DNA of 64,000 bases from an uncultured bacterium (GTDB lineage Bacteria > Patescibacteriota > Minisyncoccia > UBA6257 > 2-01-FULL-56-20), in assembly GCA_963844965.1 (NCBI GenBank), contig CAWJQC010000008.1, forward strand, positions 64,001-128,000, written 5' to 3'. The notes under the pieces are model-generated. The model ran no database searches and had not been told where the DNA came from. It saw only the letters and a list, made by a program, of their open reading frames with translations. The translations under genes were made by a program, and so were the position numbers. Of the stretch, positions 10,126 through 59,328 are shown piece by piece (position 1 is the first letter of the stretch; each line of letters starts with the position of its first letter).

Positions 10126-10270
10126 TCTTTAGCGGGCGCACCCGGTAGTGAAAACTCGACCGAATAATTTGCCGATTTTTTCTTTATCTCCAATTGTACC
10201 ATTATGATAACTCAATTAACCAACCCTGTGAATATTTTCTCCGCCTCTTGGCGGAGCAGTCAAGTTTCTA

Positions 10271-11793
10271 CTACCGGGCGTATTCTACCGCCCTCATTTC
10301 TCTTATCACGTTTACTTTAATCTCGCCAGGGTATTTTAACTCAGATTGTATCCTATTGGCAATCTCTCGCGCAAGTTCCAGAGCCCGGAAGTCGTCGATC
10401 TTTTCAGGCACCACGAATACGCGCAACTCCCGGCCGGCAGATATGGCGTAAGCGTTTTTGACCCCGGGGAATTCCATGGCGATCTTTTCAAGGTCCGCTA
10501 GCCGTTTTATATAAGCCTCGAGTGTCCCCCTGCGGGCTCCAGGCCGCGCGGCCGAAAGAACATCCGCCGCCGCAACCACATAGGCCTCCGGCGAAGCATA
10601 TGGGTAGTCGTCGTGATGCGACTGCATCGCCTCAATAACCCGGTCATTTATACCATATTTCTTTAAAATTTTTCTTCCCAGCTCCACGTGTGTTCCCTCA
10701 ACCTCATAATCTATCGCCTTGCCGATATCGTGGAGCAATGCTCCGCGTTTGGCCACATCAACGTTCAGGCCAAGTTCGCCGGCTATCATACCGGAAAGAT
10801 AGGCCATCTCAAGCGAGTGCGTCAGAACGTTCTGGCCGTAACTGGTCCTGAAATTCAAACGCCCCAAAAGCTGCAAAATCTCCTTGGGCAGGTCAAAAAT
10901 CCCGATGTCCTGAGCCGCCGCTTCGCCAATTTCCTGAGTACGTTTTTGAAGTTCGTCCTTCGCTTCTTCCACTTTTTCCTCAATTTTCGCCGGCTGGATC
11001 CGGCCGTCTTTTATCAACTTGTCCAAAGCGATCCTGGCCACTTCCCTACGGTAGGGGTCAAAAGAAGAAATGATGACGCTGTCCGGCGTTTCGTCTATCA
11101 CGAACTCCACTCCCGTCGCGCGTTCCAATGCCCTGATGTTTCTTCCTTCGCGTCCGATTATCTTCCCTTTCAGTTCTTCGTCCGCCAAAGGATACATAGT
11201 CGTCGTAATTTCCGAAACCTGCGACCGAGAATAGCGCTGAAGAGCCGTGGTTATTATACCCACAGATTTTTTCTCAATTTCCTCGTGATTTTCTTTCTCT
11301 ATTTTTTCAAGAGAACGCGCAAGATCTTCGTTATATCTCTCCTTGATCTGACGCAAGAGCTCTTCCTTCGCTTCCCCGGAACTCAATTTCGCAACGGACT
11401 CAAGCCGTGATTGGATTAAATTCTTTGCGGACTCCAGCTCCGTCTCTTTTGTTTTTATGGATTCTTCCTTGGCCCTCAAATTGCGCTCCTCGGCGCTCAA
11501 GGCATTGAGTTTTTTGTCCAAATTCTCCTCGCGGCGCAAAAGCCGGGACTCTAAAGAGTCAATCTCTCTTTTACGGTCGCGTTCTTCGTTTTTAAGCTCA
11601 ACCAAAAGCGAGGCGGCCTTATCCTTCGCCTCCAAAACAATCTCTTTCGCTTTGGTCTCCGCCTCTTCCCAAGTTTCTTGACCCGCTCTTCTGCCGAGCC
11701 TAACTTCTTAGATACCCAAAATTTCCTACCCAAGTAACCTGCCGCAAATCCAACTAAAACGGCGGCAACCATAAGTGCCGTTGAATTTCCCAT
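10271..11793 (-). CDS. rny: Ribonuclease Y (apparent frameshift near 11660 separates the N-terminal TM segment)
   Basis: The main ORF 10271..11635 has KH and HD domains (LLHDIGKAIDYE...SHHDDY). The N-terminal TM anchor (MGNSTALMVAAVLVGFAAGYLGRKF) is in ORF 11551..11793 in another frame. The junction lies beside a cggg run. Confidence 0.85.
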
Positions 11794-14430: not shown

Positions 14431-16072
14431 ATGCTTAAAAAAATTTATTCTGTCTTTACGCGCGACGAACGGATAATATTTTGGACGGCGCTCGCAGCCG
14501 TGGCCGTGAGCGCCACGGCGCTCGCCGGTTTCGGATTTATAACCAACACGCACGACGTCCCGGCACTCGGCGGCGAATACACGGAAGGAGTTCTGGGCGA
14601 ACCTGTCTACGCAAACCCCGTCACCGCGTCAACGGAAATAGACAAGGGTCTCGTGCGGCTCCTGTTCGCGAACGTTTCCCAGCTCGCGGATAAAATTGAA
14701 CTTTCCAAAGATGGACGAACGTGGGATGTGCGCCTCAAGGAAAATCTCCACTGGCAGGACGGAGAAAAATTGACGAGCGACGACGTGATTTTCACGATAG
14801 AAAAAATACAGGACCCGGAAACATTCCTCGCCGCTTTCGGTCTTCTGGCAGGGAGTAGCGGCGGAACGCCTGAGCGAATTGGAATTTCAGTTAAGTTTGG
14901 TCACCCCGTATGCTTTCTTCTCCGACACGCTGAAGAATCTGTATGTCCTGCCGAAACATTTGTTCGCCGATACGCCGCCGGCAAACTGGCGTCTCTCCGA
15001 CTACAACCTCAAACCGGTGGGTAGCGGGCCTTATAAATTCGTGGACTACGAAAAACGTCCGGATGGCTTCATTTACTCTTATAAATTGGAGGCCTGGGAT
15101 AAATATTTCGGCGACACGCCGCACATTCAAAATTTCAATTTCCAATTTTTTTCGCAGAAGACCGATCTCATAAAAAGCTTCAACTCCGGCCAGATAGACG
15201 GTATCGCCGGCCTCGAGGCCGAGGATTTGATTCAAATTAAAAGACCCTACGAAGAAATTCCGTTCCGCTTGCCCAGTTATTACGCAGTTTTCCTCAATCA
15301 GTCCAAGAGCCTGCCGCTCAAAGATATCGCCGTGCGCGAAGCGCTGAGTTTCGCCGTTTCCAGGGAAAATTTGATAAACGAAGCGCTCGGCGGGCGCGGA
15401 AAAGAAGTGTTCGGTCCCATTCCGCCGGAAACCGAGTACTTTGACCCGGCGGTAGAGTCCGCCACAAGCTCCTTGGACGCGGCCTCAAGCACGCTTGACG
15501 CCGCCGGCTGGAAAATGGACGTGGACGGCGTGCGCAAGAAAACCGTGCAGAACGCGAAAATACCCCTAGTGCTAAATCTCGTTGTGCCGCAGGCGGATTT
15601 CCTCACCAAAACGGCCGATCTGCTCAAGGAAAGTTGGGAAAAAATCGGGTTCAAAATCAATCTGGACGTTTTGTCGCTGGAAGACGCAGACACGGTAAAG
15701 GACAATCGCGACTACGAAATGCTGCTCTTCGGAAATGTCCTTGGGCGCGGTTTGAATTTGTTCGCTTTCTGGCATTCGTCCCAAAGATTTTCCCCATTTG
15801 AAAATTTGAGCCTATACAACAACAAAACGGCGGACTCGCTCATAGAATCAATACAGCAAGATATGGACGACGATAAACGCAAAGCCGAATTCAGCCAGCT
15901 TCAGAACGTGATAATAAACGACTACCCGGCGGTTTTCCTCTACTCGCCCGACTATACCTATGTGGCAAGCAAAAATGTCCACGGAATTGACGGCGGTTTC
16001 ATAGCCGAACCGGCGGATATCTTCGCGAGCACGACCAACTGGTACCTGAAAACGGCGAGGGTGCTAAAGTAA
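14431..16072 (+). CDS. ABC transporter substrate-binding protein, family 5 (Opp/Dpp-like), apparent frameshift near 14850
   Basis: The N-terminal signal anchor and first lobe are in ORF 14431..15024. The rest is in ORF 14879..16072 (LVTPYAFFSDTLKNLYVLPKHLF...GPYKFVDYEKRPDG). The frame change lies in GGCGG/GGGAG runs. Confidence 0.7.
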
Positions 16073-16080
16073 GCGGCCTA

Positions 16081-16110
16081 TTGACATTAAAGCTCAATCT
16101 GCTATAATGG
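16081..16110 (+). promoter_or_regulatory. Sigma70-type promoter TTGACA-N16-TATAAT
   Basis: The sequence ttgacattaaagctcaatctgctataat lies about 440 nt upstream of tRNA-Leu. No ORF follows it. Confidence 0.55.
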
Positions 16111-16384
16111 AACTAACCTTAGTAATTTCTCCTTTGCCCGGTAGTAGAACTGCGACGCCCTTGGGCGAGTTGTAAACTCTGAAACTGGGAAAAAATTCAC
16201 AATCAGCATTAACTCTATTTCATGCACAATCTGCGAGAATCAATAATCGCAGTTTCACTACCGGGCTTTGATTTAATGGGATTCTCGAACACCAAGGCGA
16301 CTGCTTTTTGGCTTTAATAATCAAGCTTGTTTTTCGTCTTTTGGGCAGATGGCGGAATCCGCCGAGGGCGGACAAGTCGGCAAA

Positions 16385-16400
16385 CCTGCCGGCAGGCAGG
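16385..16400. repeat. Partial copy (16 of 20 bp) of the palindrome CCTGCCTGCCGGCAGGCAGG
   Basis: The sequence cctgccggcaggcagg has full 20-bp copies at 50201-50220 and 59284-59303. Confidence 0.6.
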
Positions 16401-16547
16401 CGCACTGGCCAATCCTACAACCTTTTACAAAATAATTATGGGCGGGCGGTGAACCCCGCACCTTAGGAAGGCAGGACCGAAACGTAATTACTTCGTGGCC
16501 TTCCTAAGGTGACGGGGCAAGCTGGCAGATTTACCCCTCACCAATTT

Positions 16548-16631
16548 GCCGCGGTGGCGGAACTGGCAGACGCGCACGTTTCAGGGGCGTGTGAGAGCAA
16601 TCTCATGTGGGTTCAACTCCCACCCGCGGCA
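16548..16631 (+). tRNA. tRNA-Leu(CAG), type II with long variable arm
   Basis: Manual fold: acceptor GCCGCGG/CCGCGGC, D arm GCG-GAACTGGCAGA-CGC, anticodon arm CACGT-TTCAGGG-GCGTG (CAG), variable arm GAGA-GCAA-TCTC, T arm GTGGG-TTCAACT-CCCAC, discriminator A. Confidence 0.85.
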
Positions 16632-16649
16632 CATATAAAATTGGTGTGG

Positions 16650-16717
16650 GGACACGTAGGCTTCAGGAGCCTATGGCCGCAAGGCCGTGAGGGTTCAAGT
16701 CCCTCCTCGCCCACAGA
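16650..16717 (+). other. tRNA-Leu-like 3' fragment (anticodon arm to acceptor 3' strand) lacking a matching 5' half
   Basis: The fragment has anticodon arm TAGGC-TTCAGGA-GCCTA (CAG again), variable arm GGCC-GCAA-GGCC, T arm GAGGG-TTCAAGT-CCCTC and 3' strand CTCGCCC-A. No GGGCGAG 5' acceptor strand lies in position. It sits 18 nt after the complete tRNA-Leu. Confidence 0.55.
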
Positions 16718-16747
16718 AATTTATCACCTAATCGGTAAGACGTTGTC

Positions 16748-17359
16748 ATGATTAAATTAACAAAAAAAGATTTAGCTGGGCTTAGGAAGTTAAAAATAAC
16801 AGAGTTTCCGATAACAATGAGTTGTTTTATGTGTATGGCCTTCCCCCGGGTTAAGATTAGTGTCAAAGATACGACAATTTGGCGACAATTGCCCAATCCA
16901 GTGCCGTCTAACAGGATGTGCTTTCATATTAAGCACGATTTGGAATGTCCTTATTGCAAAGTTGGTTCGGTTTCTGCAGAAGAAGAAAGAAAAAAGTATT
17001 ATATTGAACCGGACTTCGAAGAAAAAATATTTGAAAGAGATAATTATACATGTCGGGCTTGTGGATATAAACAAAAGGGGAAACCTAAACCGGTTCCCCG
17101 TAGAAAAGAAGGGGAAACGGCCAAAGATTATTTATATAGAAGGTTTATGGCGAGTTTAGCAAAACACGATCAGAAAAAGTCATTATTCGTTGCTCATTTT
17201 CATGCGAGATACGGCAAAGAAACATACAAAAATAGGCACGAAATAGAGAATGCGAGAACGTTGTGTGTTGATTGTCATAACACCGAAACAGCGATGCATC
17301 AGATGTTGGGATGGATAGATAAAATGAATAAATGCCCCAGGTTAAAAAAACTTGAATAG
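16748..17359 (+). CDS. HNH endonuclease
   Basis: The HNH/Zn motif is CRACGY...LFVAHFHARYGKETYKNRHEIENARTLCVDCHN. The gene lies in an AT-rich (~38% GC) segment immediately after the tRNA-Leu genes. Confidence 0.7.
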   Translation: MIKLTKKDLAGLRKLKITEFPITMSCFMCMAFPRVKISVKDTTIWRQLPNPVPSNRMCFHIKHDLECPYCKVGSVSAEEERKKYYIEPDFEEKIFERDNYTCRACGYKQKGKPKPVPRRKEGETAKDYLYRRFMASLAKHDQKKSLFVAHFHARYGKETYKNRHEIENARTLCVDCHNTETAMHQMLGWIDKMNKCPRLKKLE

Positions 17360-17438
17360 CGATGAGCCGCACCATTGTTTATGTCATAAAATTAACCCCG
17401 ACCGATGTACAATTCCGATAATAAAAAAATAAAATAAC

Positions 17439-19516
17439 ATGACACCAAAACCAGAAGAGCGGCCGCGGATAAAGCCGCCAGCGGTACCTGCCCGCCGTAG
17501 TCTTGATGAAGGAGGGAGACGTCCCGAACCGCCCGCAGTACCTGCCCGCCGGCCTGTCCGCCGAAATTTGAATGAAGGCGGAAGTTTTGACGGAGAAGGG
17601 AAACATTCCGAACCGCTTGCGGCCCGGCACCACAAATCGCCGGCAACCCACAAGAAACCCGCCGCAGGCCAGCTTCGCCCGCGAAGCGAGGCGAGCGAGG
17701 CTCGCCCGAACACAGGGGGGCGGCCCGCTGTAGGCACCGCCCGTTCATATCGCTCAAAATTCGGTGAAGCACATGGAAAAACTTCCGCTCCACACACAGA
17801 GGACACGGCCGGACTCGCGCGCCGCCGCCTCGGAGAAGAAACGGAAGAAAACGGCACGCCGCTCCGTTTTGTGCCGCTTGGGGGACTGGAAGAAATCGGC
17901 CGCAACTGCATGTTCTACGAGTACAAGAACGAAATCGTCATTCTTGACATGGGATTGCAATTTCCTGAAGAAGAAACTCCGGGCATGGATTATATCATTC
18001 CGAACATTTCCTATCTGGAAAAGAAGCGGGCGAATATCCAAGCTTTAATCCTCACGCACGCGCCACTACGACCACATCGGCGCCATTCCGCACGTGATAC
18101 AGAAACTCGGCAATCCGCCGATCTATGCAACGTCCATCACCAAGGCAATCGTGGAAAAGCGGCAGGAAGATTATCCCAATAGCCCGAAGATTCACATTGA
18201 AGTCGTGAAGAACGGCGACAAGGTAAAAATTTCCAATTATTTTGACGCCGAATTCTTCGGCGTGCCGCACACCGTTCCCGAAACGACCGGCGTGGTTTTG
18301 AAAACTCCCGTCGGCAACATGGTTCACTTCGCCGATTTCCGCGTTGAATACGACGAAAACGGCGTCGCGCACGGCTTGGATGAATTTGAACGCATCGGGA
18401 AGATCGGTATCCACACCTTCACCATAGACAGCACGAACGCCGAGGAAGACGGGCAGAACGCTTTCCGAAAAAACGGTAGAAAAAAATCTTGAAGAAATTT
18501 TCCGCAAAGCCGAGGGGCGGATCATCGTCGCCACTTTCGCCTCGCTCCTCACGCGCATCGGCGAAATCATAAAAATTGCCGAAAAACTCGGAAGAAAAAT
18601 CGCGGTCTCCGGCTACTCCATGAAAACGAACGTCCAAATCGCGCAGAATCTCGGGTTCATCAAGGCGAAACCGGGCACTATCGTATCGCTGGACGAAATC
18701 CACAAGTTCCGCGACGACAAGCTGATCATTCTTTCCACCGGCGCGCAAGGTGAAGAAAACGCGAGTTTAATGAGAATCATCAACGCCGAACACCGCCAGA
18801 TCAAGATCAAACCCGGTGATACAGTAGTCCTCTCGTCCTCGGTTATCCCCGGAAACGAGCGCAGCGTGCAGGTCGTGAAGGACGACCTCTCGCGGCAGGG
18901 CGCCATCGTCTACCACTCCGCGCTCGTTGACATTCACGCCTCCGGCCACGCGCCCAAAGACGACCTGAAACTGATTATGAAATTAATAAATCCGAAATTC
19001 CTCGTCCCCGTGCACGGCTATTACTTCATGCGCGCCGCGAACGCCCAATCCGCGCGCGAAATCGGCATTCCCAAAGAAAACGCGATACTGATGGACAACG
19101 GCCAGGTGGCGGAACTGACGCCGGACAGCTTTAAGATTGCACAGGAAGCGATTCCGGCGTTCTACGTCATGGTTGACGGCTTGGGCGTCGGCGACGTGGA
19201 AGAAGTCGTCCTACGCGACCGGCGCATGCTCGCCAAAGAAGGAATGATTGTAATTATCGTCACGATCGACCGCGACAAGGGAAAACTCCTGAAAAATCCC
19301 GACATCATCTCGCGCGGCTTCATCTATCTCAAAGAGAACCAGGAAATTCTTGAGGATACGCGCAAGCGCATCCGCGGACTCATTGAGCGCCTGCCAAGCT
19401 ACCAGCCGGTGGAAGCGGATTACCTGAAAACGCTGATTCGCGACCAAATCGGCCAGTTCCTGTATAGCAAAACGAGGAGACGTCCCATGATTATACCGGT
19501 CGTCATAGAAATATAA
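17439..19516 (+). CDS. rnj: Ribonuclease J (two apparent frameshifts) with Pro/Arg-rich N-terminal repeat extension
   Basis: ORFs 17439..18182, 18094..18492 and 18620..19516 together give MBL/beta-CASP RNase J (LILTHAHYDHIGAIP read through a CC run near 18050; VHGYYFMRAANAQ). The second shift is in an A6/A7 run near 18470. The first ~130 aa are low-complexity tandem repeats (PPAVPARR). Confidence 0.85.
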
Positions 19517-19567
19517 GGCCGACTTGCCCCGCATAATCGCCGAAGGCGATTTGTGCGGGGTGATAAT

Positions 19568-19588
19568 TCCGGTGGTAATAGAAATCTA
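19568..19588 (+). repeat. Duplicate of the last 7 codons of rnj (PVVIEI*), 53 nt downstream of the real stop
   Basis: ccggtggtaatagaaatctaa compared with ccggtcgtcatagaaatataa at 19494-19514. A hairpin CCCCGCAtaATCGCC...GGCGATttgTGCGGGG lies between them. Confidence 0.6.
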
Positions 19589-19632
19589 AACACCAGGCCG
19601 CGATAAGCGGCTTTTGTGTTAAAATACTCAGT

Positions 19633-21292: not shown

Positions 21293-22183
21293 CTAATCAA
21301 TAGCTTCTAACCACTCGACGGGCGTTTTCATATCAAGTCCCATGTGCGGCCGTTCGGTATTGTAGTAGTGAAGAAAATCGGGAATCTCCTTGCGCCACGC
21401 GGCAAGAGTGTTAGGGATACGTCGTAAACAGTCCCGCTGAAGCGTTTGGATGAACCGTTCCACATGGCTGTTATCTGTTGGCGTCCGTACGCGCGAGTGG
21501 CGATGTGAAAATCCCTGATGCTCGATGACCTTGGTAAACCATTTTGAAAACTCCCCGCCACGGTCGGATTGGATTGTGACGAAAGGAAACGGAGCTGCCG
21601 CTTGCGCTTGCTGGACGAACCGTGCGCTTAAGCGGCTTGAGACCTGGGCGGCTGGCCATGCCCACGCCCAACGGGAACATACGTCGATCAAGGCGTACGC
21701 ATGGAGGTGGTCCATGGCAATACCTTCTTGCATTGAATCGATCTCAACCAATATGCCTGGCTTTGTGGGCATGGGACGCGGAAGATACTGGTGCCACTTC
21801 TTCCATTTTGAATATCGCGTGATACCGTGGCGTTTGAGTGTACGCTTCACGGACGAAAGGCTAACGGCAATCTTTTCCTCTTCTAGCCGGTGATGGACGA
21901 TCTCCGCGCATTGGTCCCGTTCGCTGCGAAGTGCAAGGATGCGGCCAATGACCGCTCGGTCGAGTTCGCGTGGATGATGGTGCGGCCGCGATGAAAGCGT
22001 CGGGATGACAAGATGACCGCCTTCGCCATATTCCGTGCCCCGCTTCACCCATAACCGGACCGTACAATGGCTGAACCCATACTTCCGAGCGGCCTTGCGG
22101 ATACTCCACCCGGACTGCGTGAGCGCGACTGCTTCCGCCCGTACCCGGGGCAGATGGGGATTCTTGGTGTATGCCATGTACAT
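21293..22183 (-). CDS. IS481-family DDE transposase (rve integrase core)
   Basis: MYMAYTKNPHLPRVRAEAVALTQSGWSIRKAARKYG (HTH) ... IQSDRGGEFS ... TPTDNSHVERF (DDE). The ORF track extends the N-terminus spuriously. Confidence 0.8.
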   Translation of the reverse strand: MYMAYTKNPHLPRVRAEAVALTQSGWSIRKAARKYGFSHCTVRLWVKRGTEYGEGGHLVIPTLSSRPHHHPRELDRAVIGRILALRSERDQCAEIVHHRLEEEKIAVSLSSVKRTLKRHGITRYSKWKKWHQYLPRPMPTKPGILVEIDSMQEGIAMDHLHAYALIDVCSRWAWAWPAAQVSSRLSARFVQQAQAAAPFPFVTIQSDRGGEFSKWFTKVIEHQGFSHRHSRVRTPTDNSHVERFIQTLQRDCLRRIPNTLAAWRKEIPDFLHYYNTERPHMGLDMKTPVEWLEAID

Positions 22184-22219
22184 AGCTTTGCAAATTCTTG
22201 GGTGGTTACAAGCTATTGA
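21293..22219. mobile_element. IS481-family insertion sequence, ~925 bp, 18-bp imperfect terminal inverted repeats
   Basis: Left TIR tcaatagcttctaaccac at 21297-21314. Right TIR gtggttacaagctattga at 22202-22219 (17/18 match). It encloses a DDE transposase gene. Confidence 0.7.
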
Positions 22220-22448
22220 ACCACGACACAGTCTTGACAATCCGGATGGGTTAGAAAGGAAATTCCAAGATTTAAATAGATTTGTTAAGGGCAAAGGGGA
22301 AAGAGATCTAGAATTAATTACGACATTCCATTTCTTATCAAAAACAGAGGGGAGCGCAAAAGCGAAAGAGAGACTCAAGGAGTTGAAGGGGGCGACACCT
22401 GAAGAAATAAAATACGCCACGGAAGCAATTAAGCAAATTCCATCATAA
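22176..22448 (+). CDS. Hypothetical small protein, start uncertain (would begin inside the IS right end)
   Basis: The only in-frame ATG is at 22176, inside the IS terminal repeat. The product ends ...KELKGATPEEIKYATEAIKQIPS. It is AT-rich, and its stop overlaps the next start (ATGA). Confidence 0.2.
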   Translation: MYIALQILGWLQAIEPRHSLDNPDGLERKFQDLNRFVKGKGERDLELITTFHFLSKTEGSAKAKERLKELKGATPEEIKYATEAIKQIPS

Positions 22449-37601: not shown

Positions 37602-37672
37602 AACCTGTTTTACAGAAATGGCCAGCAAATTGTGAGTCCGGCAGGTTCGAATCCTGTAGGGGTGTCTGCTCC

Positions 37673-50128: not shown

Positions 50129-50233
50129 CGCCGCCGCTCGTCCTCTTTATTATTTAATATTCGGCCATTTTGTTGATGTAATATCCGCAAAGCGTCCGCG
50201 CCTGCCTGCCGGCAGGCAGGATTTCTAACGGGA
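50107..50233. repeat. Inverted-repeat mini-element: 13-bp TIRs TCCCGTTAGAAAT/ATTTCTAACGGGA enclosing the 20-bp palindrome CCTGCCTGCCGGCAGGCAGG
   Basis: The arms are at 50107-50119 and 50221-50233. The palindrome is at 50201-50220. The element lies between the half-MFS and the clp-like gene. Confidence 0.6.
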
Positions 50234-59230: not shown

Positions 59231-59328
59231 GTTTATGTTTTCCATTCCGCAATCCTGCCCCGCTCTACTGGCGGGGGGGTATTCCTGCCTGCCGGCAGGC
59301 AGGCTTGCGGGGAAAACATAAAACAAAT
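59231..59328. repeat. Inverted-repeat mini-element enclosing the 20-bp palindrome CCTGCCTGCCGGCAGGCAGG (59284-59303)
   Basis: The arms are gtttatgttttcc (59231-59243) and ggaaaacataaaac (59311-59324), with an inner CCCCGC/GCGGGGG stem. It sits in the 300-bp spacer between the MBL RNase and the LOG-like gene. Confidence 0.5.

Follow-up and report, generated by a model that had tools for sequence, protein, structure and literature searches.

A tRNA-Leu gene nested in the D-loop of an older tRNA-Leu gene upstream of RNase J, and the recurrence of this arrangement in Patescibacteria

In a 64,000-nucleotide (nt) stretch of DNA from an uncultured bacterium of the Patescibacteriota (assembly GCA_963844965.1, contig CAWJQC010000008.1, positions 64,001 to 128,000 of the forward strand; hereafter the window, whose own numbering is used throughout), a complete tRNA-Leu(CAG) gene upstream of the gene for RNase J lies inside an older tRNA-Leu gene that is split in its D-loop. 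A first-pass annotation, made from the sequence alone, had recorded the tRNA-Leu half that follows the complete gene as an orphan; it is the back part of the split gene. This nested architecture, in which we refer to the split gene as outer and to the complete gene as inner, recurs in at least 11 independent Patescibacteria loci. In the window it consists of the following features, all on the plus strand:

16440–16453 (+): outer tRNA-Leu(CAG), 5' piece, comprising the acceptor strand GGGCGGG, C8 and G9, the D-stem 5' strand GTG, then AA.
16454–16517 (+): hp1, an inverted repeat that appears in the minimum free energy (MFE) fold as a GC-clamped hairpin, CCCCG...CGGGG, with inner arms CCTTAGGAAGGC/GCCTTCCTAAGG, followed by CAAG.
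16518–16533 (+): the element CAAGCTGGCAGATTTA, which includes the outer D-loop core CTGGCAGA at 16522–16529 and occurs once in the window.
16534–16547 (+): h5, the left inverted repeat CCCCTCACCAATTT, reaching up to the first base of the inner tRNA and found nowhere else in the window.
16548–16632 (+): inner tRNA-Leu(CAG), complete and presumably the working gene, detected by ARAGORN, Rfam and a tRNA-Leu model.
16638–16651 (+): h3, the right inverted repeat AAATTGGTGTGGGG, separated from the inner tRNA end by a 5-nt spacer; it pairs with h5, with covariation across loci.
16652–16713 (+): outer tRNA-Leu(CAG), 3' piece, comprising A, the D-stem 3' strand CAC (16653–16655), G26, the anticodon arm (CAG at 16664–16666), the variable arm, the T arm, the acceptor 3' strand CTCGCCC (16706–16712) and A73 (16713); it terminates in CTCGCCCA, and CCA is not encoded. 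Over 65 nt it is 95% identical to the tRNA-Leu of the closest relative (L008).

The inner gene is the only tRNA that ARAGORN found in the region. It scores 46.5 bits with the Rfam tRNA model (cut-off 29) and 83.3 bits with a tRNA-Leu model built from 40 relatives, with which complete genes score 67–93 bits. Having a contiguous cloverleaf, a long variable arm, the anticodon CAG and A73, it is indeed the complete type-II tRNA-Leu(CAG) that had been called from the sequence, with its end at 16632. The 3' piece of the outer gene reaches 23.1 bits with the Rfam model, below threshold (16642–16705, model positions 8–63), and 43.6 bits with the tRNA-Leu model (E ~4e-8; 16643–16714). Since the latter score lies below the range of complete genes, this piece derives from a tRNA-Leu but is not a complete gene; ARAGORN called nothing when given it alone. 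Its anticodon, variable and T arms and its 3' acceptor strand had been recognized correctly, whereas its start, placed at 16650, belongs at 16638 if the stalk strand is included and at 16652 for the tRNA body.

The same annotation had described the fragment as lacking a matching 5' acceptor strand and D arm, which proved not to be so. CAC is present at 16653–16655, and together with CTCGCCC it demands a 5' pattern of the form GGGYGRG-N-G-GTG (GGGYGRGNGGTG). On both strands of the window this pattern has a sole match (0.08 expected), the GGGCGGG CG GTG at 16440–16451, which lies 96 nt upstream of the complete tRNA. The two outer acceptor strands pair at all seven positions, with one G-U pair. 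Although the outer gene as it stands has no contiguous cloverleaf, removing 16454–16521 and 16530–16652 in silico restores a gene that ARAGORN calls as tRNA-Leu(CAG). The interruption amounts to 198 nt and is made up of the hp1 insertion and a 123-nt segment that carries the inner tRNA between 14-nt inverted repeats.

Consistent with this parsing, the MFE fold of 16441–16716 (−137.6 kcal/mol, z = −6.35, with none of 200 shuffles as good) has the outer acceptor stem closing the whole; inside it come hp1, then the stalk with the inner cloverleaf, and last the anticodon, variable and T arms of the outer gene. The h5/h3 stalk pairs at 13 of its 14 positions (free energy −20.3 kcal/mol, z = −4.6). 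The junction helices are plain stems. Extended helices, namely the 14-nt stalk and hp1, stand in for a loop of a structural RNA, as in intervening sequences.

Several other readings of these bases were tried and rejected. Alone, the 3' fragment can fold GUGUGGG with CCCACA into a mini-tRNA without a D arm, but those bases, which belong to the stalk and the acceptor strand, have better partners that are conserved across loci. GGGCGAG at 16163–16169, considered as the missing 5' strand, lacks a D-stem continuation, and the pattern search gives only 16440. A T-arm-like site near 37644–37654 has neither Rfam nor ARAGORN support. Rfam scans, with E up to 10 over 15500–18500 and at gathering thresholds over the whole window, returned only two tRNAs and the sub-threshold fragment, and no intron, ribozyme, transfer-messenger RNA or HNH-associated RNA; the group I intron model found no match at 15500–18500 even at E = 10, and the insertion site is the D-loop.

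Outside the window, the same layout was first seen in an unrelated locus of the relative L058, and metagenome contigs were then scanned with a motif that takes in the end of hp1. Of the 63 loci retrieved, about half were chance matches within protein genes, but at every true motif locus a tRNA-Leu follows; where the CAAGCTGGCAGATTTA element precedes a called tRNA, this is tRNA-Leu in 31 of 31 cases. The full nested layout was present in ten further loci (L134, L132, L058, L029, L107, L090, L128, L122, L139 and L144), one of which, the unrelated L058, has it around tRNA-Leu(UAG). A script that took the strand preceding YG-GYG as the outer 5' strand, and that used the second T arm to find the outer 3' strand, gave 7/7 pairing of the outer acceptor strands in eight of the ten loci scored; the remaining two, L134 (a one-base register shift) and L029 (a decayed T arm whose 3' strand the script missed), pair 7/7 by eye. 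L144 was parsed by eye. In the hand-built constructs described next, the pairing is complete in all eleven loci.

Pairing was then assessed on hand-cut constructs of 11 loci, three segments each. Across the outer acceptor, D-stem and stalk helices, 99.5% of the cells are paired, and 11 of the 17 pairs have changed on both sides. When the partner strand was slid by 1–3 columns, pairing fell to 30–45%, and no shuffle reached the observed values. For the stalk taken separately (helix 3), 98.7% of the cells are paired and four of seven pairs have changed on both sides; it measures 9–14 base pairs (bp) and accompanies the 3' piece in every case, being absent from loci that lack that piece. Furthermore, the inner and outer anticodons (CAG, UAG or CAA) are identical in all 11 loci in which the outer one is readable. 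An assembly artefact was rejected as the source of the nesting because the architecture recurs in independent GenBank, JGI and ENA assemblies. A phage origin was likewise rejected, the same motif scan of viral contigs having given a single chance match inside a protein gene.

Comparison with relatives shows which of the two genes came first. The C-terminal part of the window's RNase J is 83–84% identical to that of metagenome-assembled genomes of Candidatus Liptonbacteria (Patescibacteria, also called the Candidate Phyla Radiation, CPR), and the window comes from a genome close to these. Of the RNase J loci compared from 80 relatives, about 70 have one tRNA-Leu(CAG) directly upstream of RNase J; most of those without an upstream tRNA-Leu end before that point. 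The gap between the tRNA and the start of RNase J is mostly 10–210 nt in the relatives checked, reaches 290–760 nt in several, and is 726 nt in the window. When spliced, the outer gene is identical at 76 of 84 positions to the uninterrupted tRNA-Leu of L008 at the same locus, so that L008 shows the empty site; the best match of the inner gene among the relatives is 69 of 85. The outer gene is the old resident of the lineage, and the inner gene is a newcomer. Among close relatives (L008–L087), the syntenic tRNA-Leu(CAG) genes have at least eight unrelated acceptor stems (GGGCAGG, GCCCTCC, GCTGGGG, GCCGAGG, GCCGCGG, GCTCGGG, GCCCCTC and GCCCGGG), a diversity that serial replacement at this site would produce.

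Nor do the two genes exhaust the tRNA-Leu sequences at the locus. Upstream of the outer halves lies an older relic, which brings the tRNA-Leu(CAG) generations to three:

16343–16409 (+): third and oldest tRNA-Leu(CAG) relic, 5' half only, identical at 29 of 32 positions to positions 1–32 of the L037 tRNA-Leu(CAG) once both of its hairpins are removed.

It reads GGGCAGA TG GCG GAA, the hairpin TCCGCC-GAG-GGCGGA CAAG, TCGGCAAA, the palindrome CCTGCCGGCAGGCAGG, then CGC A CTGGC; we found no 3' partner for it. Comparisons between loci speak for movement and replacement. L134, from the same RNase J locus (78% identity), shares with the window homologous hp1, stalk and inner acceptor and D-arm sequences, while the outer genes of the two are unrelated (GGGCGGG versus GCCCCCC). 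Nesting in L134 is three levels deep, and the gene type at each level is found in another relative as the only resident. The GGCCGAG type is the outer gene in L122 and the inner gene in L139, and in L038 a decayed 3' relic of the GCCGCGG type follows a different complete gene.

While the inner copies are always canonical, at least 11 of about 15 outer copies are broken beyond the nesting itself. The outer copy is structurally intact in the window, in L134 (its middle level), in L132 and in L058. In L090, L128, L122, L139, L144 and L117, a hairpin interrupts the anticodon loop or adjoins it on the 5' side; these hairpins are 18–40 nt long, end in CA(A/G)G and mostly sit between positions 33 and 34 (that of L117 is at the 5' edge of the loop), and the anticodon stems around them are still perfectly paired. 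The anticodon arm or the T arm is lost in L029, L107 and L096, and the 3' piece is missing in L097 and L093. Position 8 is a near-universal U in tRNAs; the outer copy has C there in the window and T in the other ten loci. On the strength of these patterns we infer that outer copies are dispensable relics.

L029 and L107 descend from one common insertion event, and the outer anticodon arm is gone in both, but their stalks differ by paired compensatory changes (GTCAC/GTGAC versus GCTAC/GTAGC). As these changes are found in loci without an outer anticodon arm, the stalk seems to serve the inner tRNA, and by analogy with rRNA operons it may be a processing stalk.

Sister arrangements connect disrupted tRNA-Leu genes with a nuclease family. 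In L047, L088/L136, L091, L092, L105, L116, L117 and L142, an open reading frame (ORF) of about 80 amino acids that matches GIY-YIG (Pfam 52–54 bits) lies between a 5' tRNA-Leu relic and a complete tRNA-Leu, and L019 and L086 show the same relic–ORF–tRNA order at the RNase J locus. L010 (4742–5050) presents the mirror image, a complete tRNA-Leu with the GIY-YIG ORF directly at its 3' end and then a relic, which is a second copy of the T-loop-to-CCA portion, split in the T-loop by a perfect 23-bp palindrome. Phage T4 SegB is a GIY-YIG homing enzyme in a tRNA gene cluster (PMC2330249), and in CPR rRNA genes GIY-YIG ORFs are confined to non-intron insertions (PMC11270868). The pattern fits the gain, decay and loss cycle of homing endonucleases, with the ORF-less nested form as a possible later stage. 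As a separate observation, the complete tRNA-Leu of L047 is followed (2447–2605) by a structured stretch of about 150 nt that ends in a second T-stem/acceptor 3' end with CCA, and that contains CTGGCGGAAGAT, which is also found in the decayed outer copies of L029 and L107.

Taken together, we consider serial, self-compensating replacement of tRNA-Leu genes the probable explanation of the nested loci. An insertion would destroy a single-copy essential tRNA gene but supply a working copy of the same isoacceptor. With no room for a promoter of its own, the inner tRNA would depend on that of the resident gene, transcription running through the 5' relic; cleavage of the inverted-repeat stalk would free it for the usual maturation by RNase P and 3' processing. 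The outer halves would no longer be needed, and could decay or gather more hairpin insertions. Repeated rounds would yield nested genes, with one tRNA sequence after another taking over the same chromosomal site. Transfer between related strains would probably be nuclease-driven and homing-like, because a small GIY-YIG ORF is found within or next to the disrupted tRNA-Leu of the sister arrangements.

Hairpin units similar to hp1 recur in the window. GC-rich palindromes and hairpins ending in CA(A/G)G, including CCTGCCTGCCGGCAGGCAGG, are dispersed in the window (50201–50220, 59284–59303, 59254–59276 on the minus strand, 17553–17582 on the minus strand, and 16358–16400); one unit sits in the Pro/Arg-rich N-terminal extension of RNase J. 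Both in the window and in relatives, pieces of relic tRNAs are interrupted by these units. At the other end of RNase J, the last nine codons and the stop are duplicated (19488–19516 and 19561–19589), with synonymous differences only, and between the copies lies a GC-rich hairpin (19523–19560; minus strand CCCCGCAC...GCGGGG CAAG). From its sequence, this duplication would follow the same logic as the tRNA genes, an insertion that brings a replacement copy.

A number of points weigh against serial replacement, or at least against its simplest form. Relative to the empty site there are two insertions, not one, and given the dispersed hairpins, a distinct family of repeats may account for part of the nested structure. 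Mosaicism is evident in the inner tRNAs of the window and L134, which have the acceptor stem and D arm in common but differ in the other three arms (anticodon, variable and T); recombination between tRNA-Leu copies thus makes a fixed cassette hard to delimit. The nested unit of the window has no nuclease ORF inside. Its outer copy has an undamaged 3' piece and all of its stems pair; its inactivity is what we infer. The apparent constancy of hp1 is partly an effect of the search, because the scan motif includes the hp1 end. Finally, single-base details such as C8 are insecure on account of frameshifts in the neighbouring genes: RNase J (17439–19516) runs through three reading frames that meet near 18062 and 18452, and the SBP_bac_5 solute-binding gene (14431–16072) through two, as the result of either gene decay into pseudogenes or assembly indel errors.

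Alternatively, both tRNAs might work. In the manner of bacterial 23S rRNA intervening sequences, either the stalk and hp1 would be removed or RNase P and 3' processing would release the inner tRNA, and the outer tRNA would persist as a two-piece or re-ligated molecule that its acceptor stem, D stem and stalk hold together. Four loci (the window, L134, L132 and L058) have an outer copy whose acceptor stem and anticodon, variable and T arms are intact and canonical; both insertions lie in or at the edge of the D-loop, the stalk shows compensation between L029 and L107, and CPR rRNA genes carry non-intron insertions that are thought to be cut out without ligation (PMC11270868). However, the stalk compensation is seen precisely where the outer anticodon arm has already been lost, at least 11 of about 15 outer copies carry the additional breaks described above, and the window's own outer copy has C8. 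Moreover, we know of no bacterial tRNA splicing system for such sites. We therefore regard joint function as unlikely. Quite improbable, in our judgement, is the specific form in which excision of the inner tRNA cuts the outer precursor in the D-loop and the resulting pieces, held together by the 14-bp stalk, the D stem and the acceptor stem, make up a working two-piece tRNA-Leu; if it were true, one nested gene would yield two tRNAs, a bacterial counterpart of the split tRNAs of archaea.

It is also conceivable, although we think it doubtful, that no dedicated mobile element is involved and that the nested loci are by-products of recombination with DNA of related strains taken up by natural transformation, one end joining by homology and the other illegitimately at GC-rich palindromes, so that a donor segment is left beside the recipient copy. 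The duplication of nine codons around a hairpin at the 3' end of RNase J would obey the same logic, and the mosaic inner tRNAs and the dispersal of hairpin–CA(A/G)G units in the window also speak for it. Four regularities, however, fit a site-directed process better than random illegitimate joins: the 11 loci, with three isoacceptors among them, share one insertion position in the tRNA, the two outer strands of a locus always come from one gene, the inner gene is always bracketed by inverted repeats ending at the tRNA, and GIY-YIG ORFs recur in the sister arrangements.

The remaining explanations involve the gene that separates the outer tRNA from RNase J:

16748–17359 (+): predicted HNH endonuclease gene, free-standing, 203 amino acids, between the outer tRNA 3' end and RNase J, assigned with Pfam and PHROG.

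This ORF had been described from the sequence as an AT-rich gene for an HNH nuclease, and of that description the AT-richness holds and the HNH assignment is probable. Its GC content is 36.9%, compared with 49.1% for the window and 51–55% for the flanking genes. It matches ten PHROG HNH families (E from 2.5e-7 to 7e-3) and scores 20.0 bits with Pfam HNH (PF01844; cut-off 21.4), a borderline score that two homologues share. The family comprises about 16 proteins of 50–65% identity, whose contexts (L001–L007, L152–L157) differ: the gene follows a Mur ligase gene or a tRNA cluster (L007), adjoins restriction-modification genes, lies within an opp operon surrounded by toxin-antitoxin genes, or belongs to a phage-like series of small, overlapping ORFs. 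At the nucleotide level, homology with the closest homologue (L007) does not extend beyond the ORF. None of the syntenic tRNA-Leu/RNase J loci among the 80 relatives contains the gene, which is thus not a core gene there. An element shared upstream of the HNH genes was considered and rejected, as the upstream regions of six homologues do not align and tRNAs adjoin the gene only in L007.

The suggestion of a selfish HNH cassette accordingly gained ground. As is typical of free-standing homing genes, this one is sporadic at a conserved site and has homologues at unrelated sites, and it is best read as a predicted free-standing selfish nuclease gene that was inserted independently of the tRNA nesting and landed in a spacer that is an insertion hot spot. 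We find it very unlikely that the HNH nuclease instead drives the nesting by cutting tRNA-Leu genes, with the split gene as a repaired target. Its start codon lies only 35 nt past the outer A73, and the L007 ORF begins about 17 nt after a tRNA-Ser, likewise a long-arm tRNA; but none of the other nested loci has an HNH homologue, about ten other HNH contexts have no adjoining tRNA, and L134 has the nested unit at the same locus without the HNH gene.

Least tenable of all is the proposal, made in the first-pass annotation, that the fragment is a scar of integrase-mediated insertion, that is, a displaced 3' attachment (att) copy with the HNH segment as the remnant of an island: a partial tRNA copy does adjoin a complete tRNA with a low-GC gene alongside, but the fragment belongs to a different gene (95% identical over 65 nt to the L008 tRNA), abuts the complete tRNA between it and the supposed island rather than beyond the island, has its 5' part upstream on the other side, and is accompanied by neither flanking direct repeats nor a nearby integrase. 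The att-like repeats sought around the HNH ORF did not turn up, as there is no direct repeat of 9 nt or more around it and the window and five homologous loci give only chance matches of 7–8 nt; no tyrosine or serine recombinase lies within about 6 kilobases (kb), the rve transposase at 21293–22420 being the only recombinase-like gene.

The wider neighbourhood was surveyed with Pfam on all large ORFs between 7.7 and 22.4 kb, which identified RNase Y, iPGM, SBP_bac_5, a class I aminoacyl-tRNA synthetase and RNase J. The transposase gene, on the minus strand 4 kb downstream of the locus, is of the insertion-sequence DDE type, with rve, rve_3 and helix-turn-helix domains. A repeat of about 130 nt is found at 16138–16265 (+) and 10141–10277 (−), and also in L055 and, twice, in L093. 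Its inverted ends (CCGGTAGTAGAA...TTTCACTACCGGG) are conserved and its interior varies; it resembles a miniature inverted-repeat element and has no Rfam match. Just past the solute-binding gene, at 16081–16108, there is a perfect sigma-70 consensus (TTGACA, 16 nt, TG-TATAAT) directed toward the repeat and tRNA region.

Should serial replacement be correct, an essential tRNA gene present in one copy would be open to repeated invasion, a working copy arriving with each invader, and the strong differences between the acceptor stems of tRNA-Leu at one site in close Patescibacteria would be explained, the nested relics being a record of the successive replacements there. tRNA finders report only the inner gene of such loci, or label the relic a pseudogene or att site, and genomic islands and integration scars may therefore be mis-inferred in CPR genomes. 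The intact outer copies make the use of split tRNAs in bacteria a testable question. The very small GIY-YIG proteins, which lack a DNA-binding domain, together with the GC-rich palindromes suggest a possible target for a widespread nuclease family.

Full-text literature searches, whose coverage was incomplete and which thus provide absence of evidence only, returned no description of a tRNA gene nested in a tRNA gene, but several known systems are similar in part. Integrative elements that target tRNA genes (with attL and attR) also insert into a tRNA gene, keep a working tRNA and leave a partial copy. Here, in contrast, a whole tRNA gene rather than a 3' segment is brought in, the target is the D-loop, both old halves flank the new gene, and there are no identical att repeats and no integrase. 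Free-standing homing endonucleases such as T4 SegB (PMC2330249) resemble our loci in that small GIY-YIG or HNH genes lie by tRNAs, are sporadic, and have flanking sequence replaced by that of the donor. However, that process is a clean allele replacement between co-infecting phages, while in the nested loci flanking relics are kept and events stack as nests, and cleavage by the proteins described here is a prediction.

Within the same phylum, group I introns interrupt the anticodon loops of Patescibacteria tRNAs (PMC13011429); such interrupted tRNA genes are likewise missed by annotation tools, and some contain HNH genes. Those introns are self-splicing and lie in the anticodon loop, whereas the insert described here lies in the D-loop and contains a tRNA gene. 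The non-intron insertions of CPR rRNA genes and the intervening sequences processed by RNase III (PMC11270868) are also helix-closed inserts in the loops of structural RNAs, but they bring no replacement gene, while in our case a tRNA gene is the host, and what the insert adds is a further copy of that gene. Finally, the split, permuted and multi-intron tRNA genes of Archaea and red algae, for which an origin from mobile elements has been proposed (PMC3218864, PMC3293823, PMC3978253), are similarly interrupted outside position 37/38 and have complementary flanks that join the pieces. In those organisms, an endonuclease and a ligase join the pieces at a bulge-helix-bulge, and the gene is the only copy of that tRNA; in these Patescibacteria loci, the host is a bacterium, the interruption holds a complete tRNA with the same anticodon, and many of the outer copies are visibly dead.

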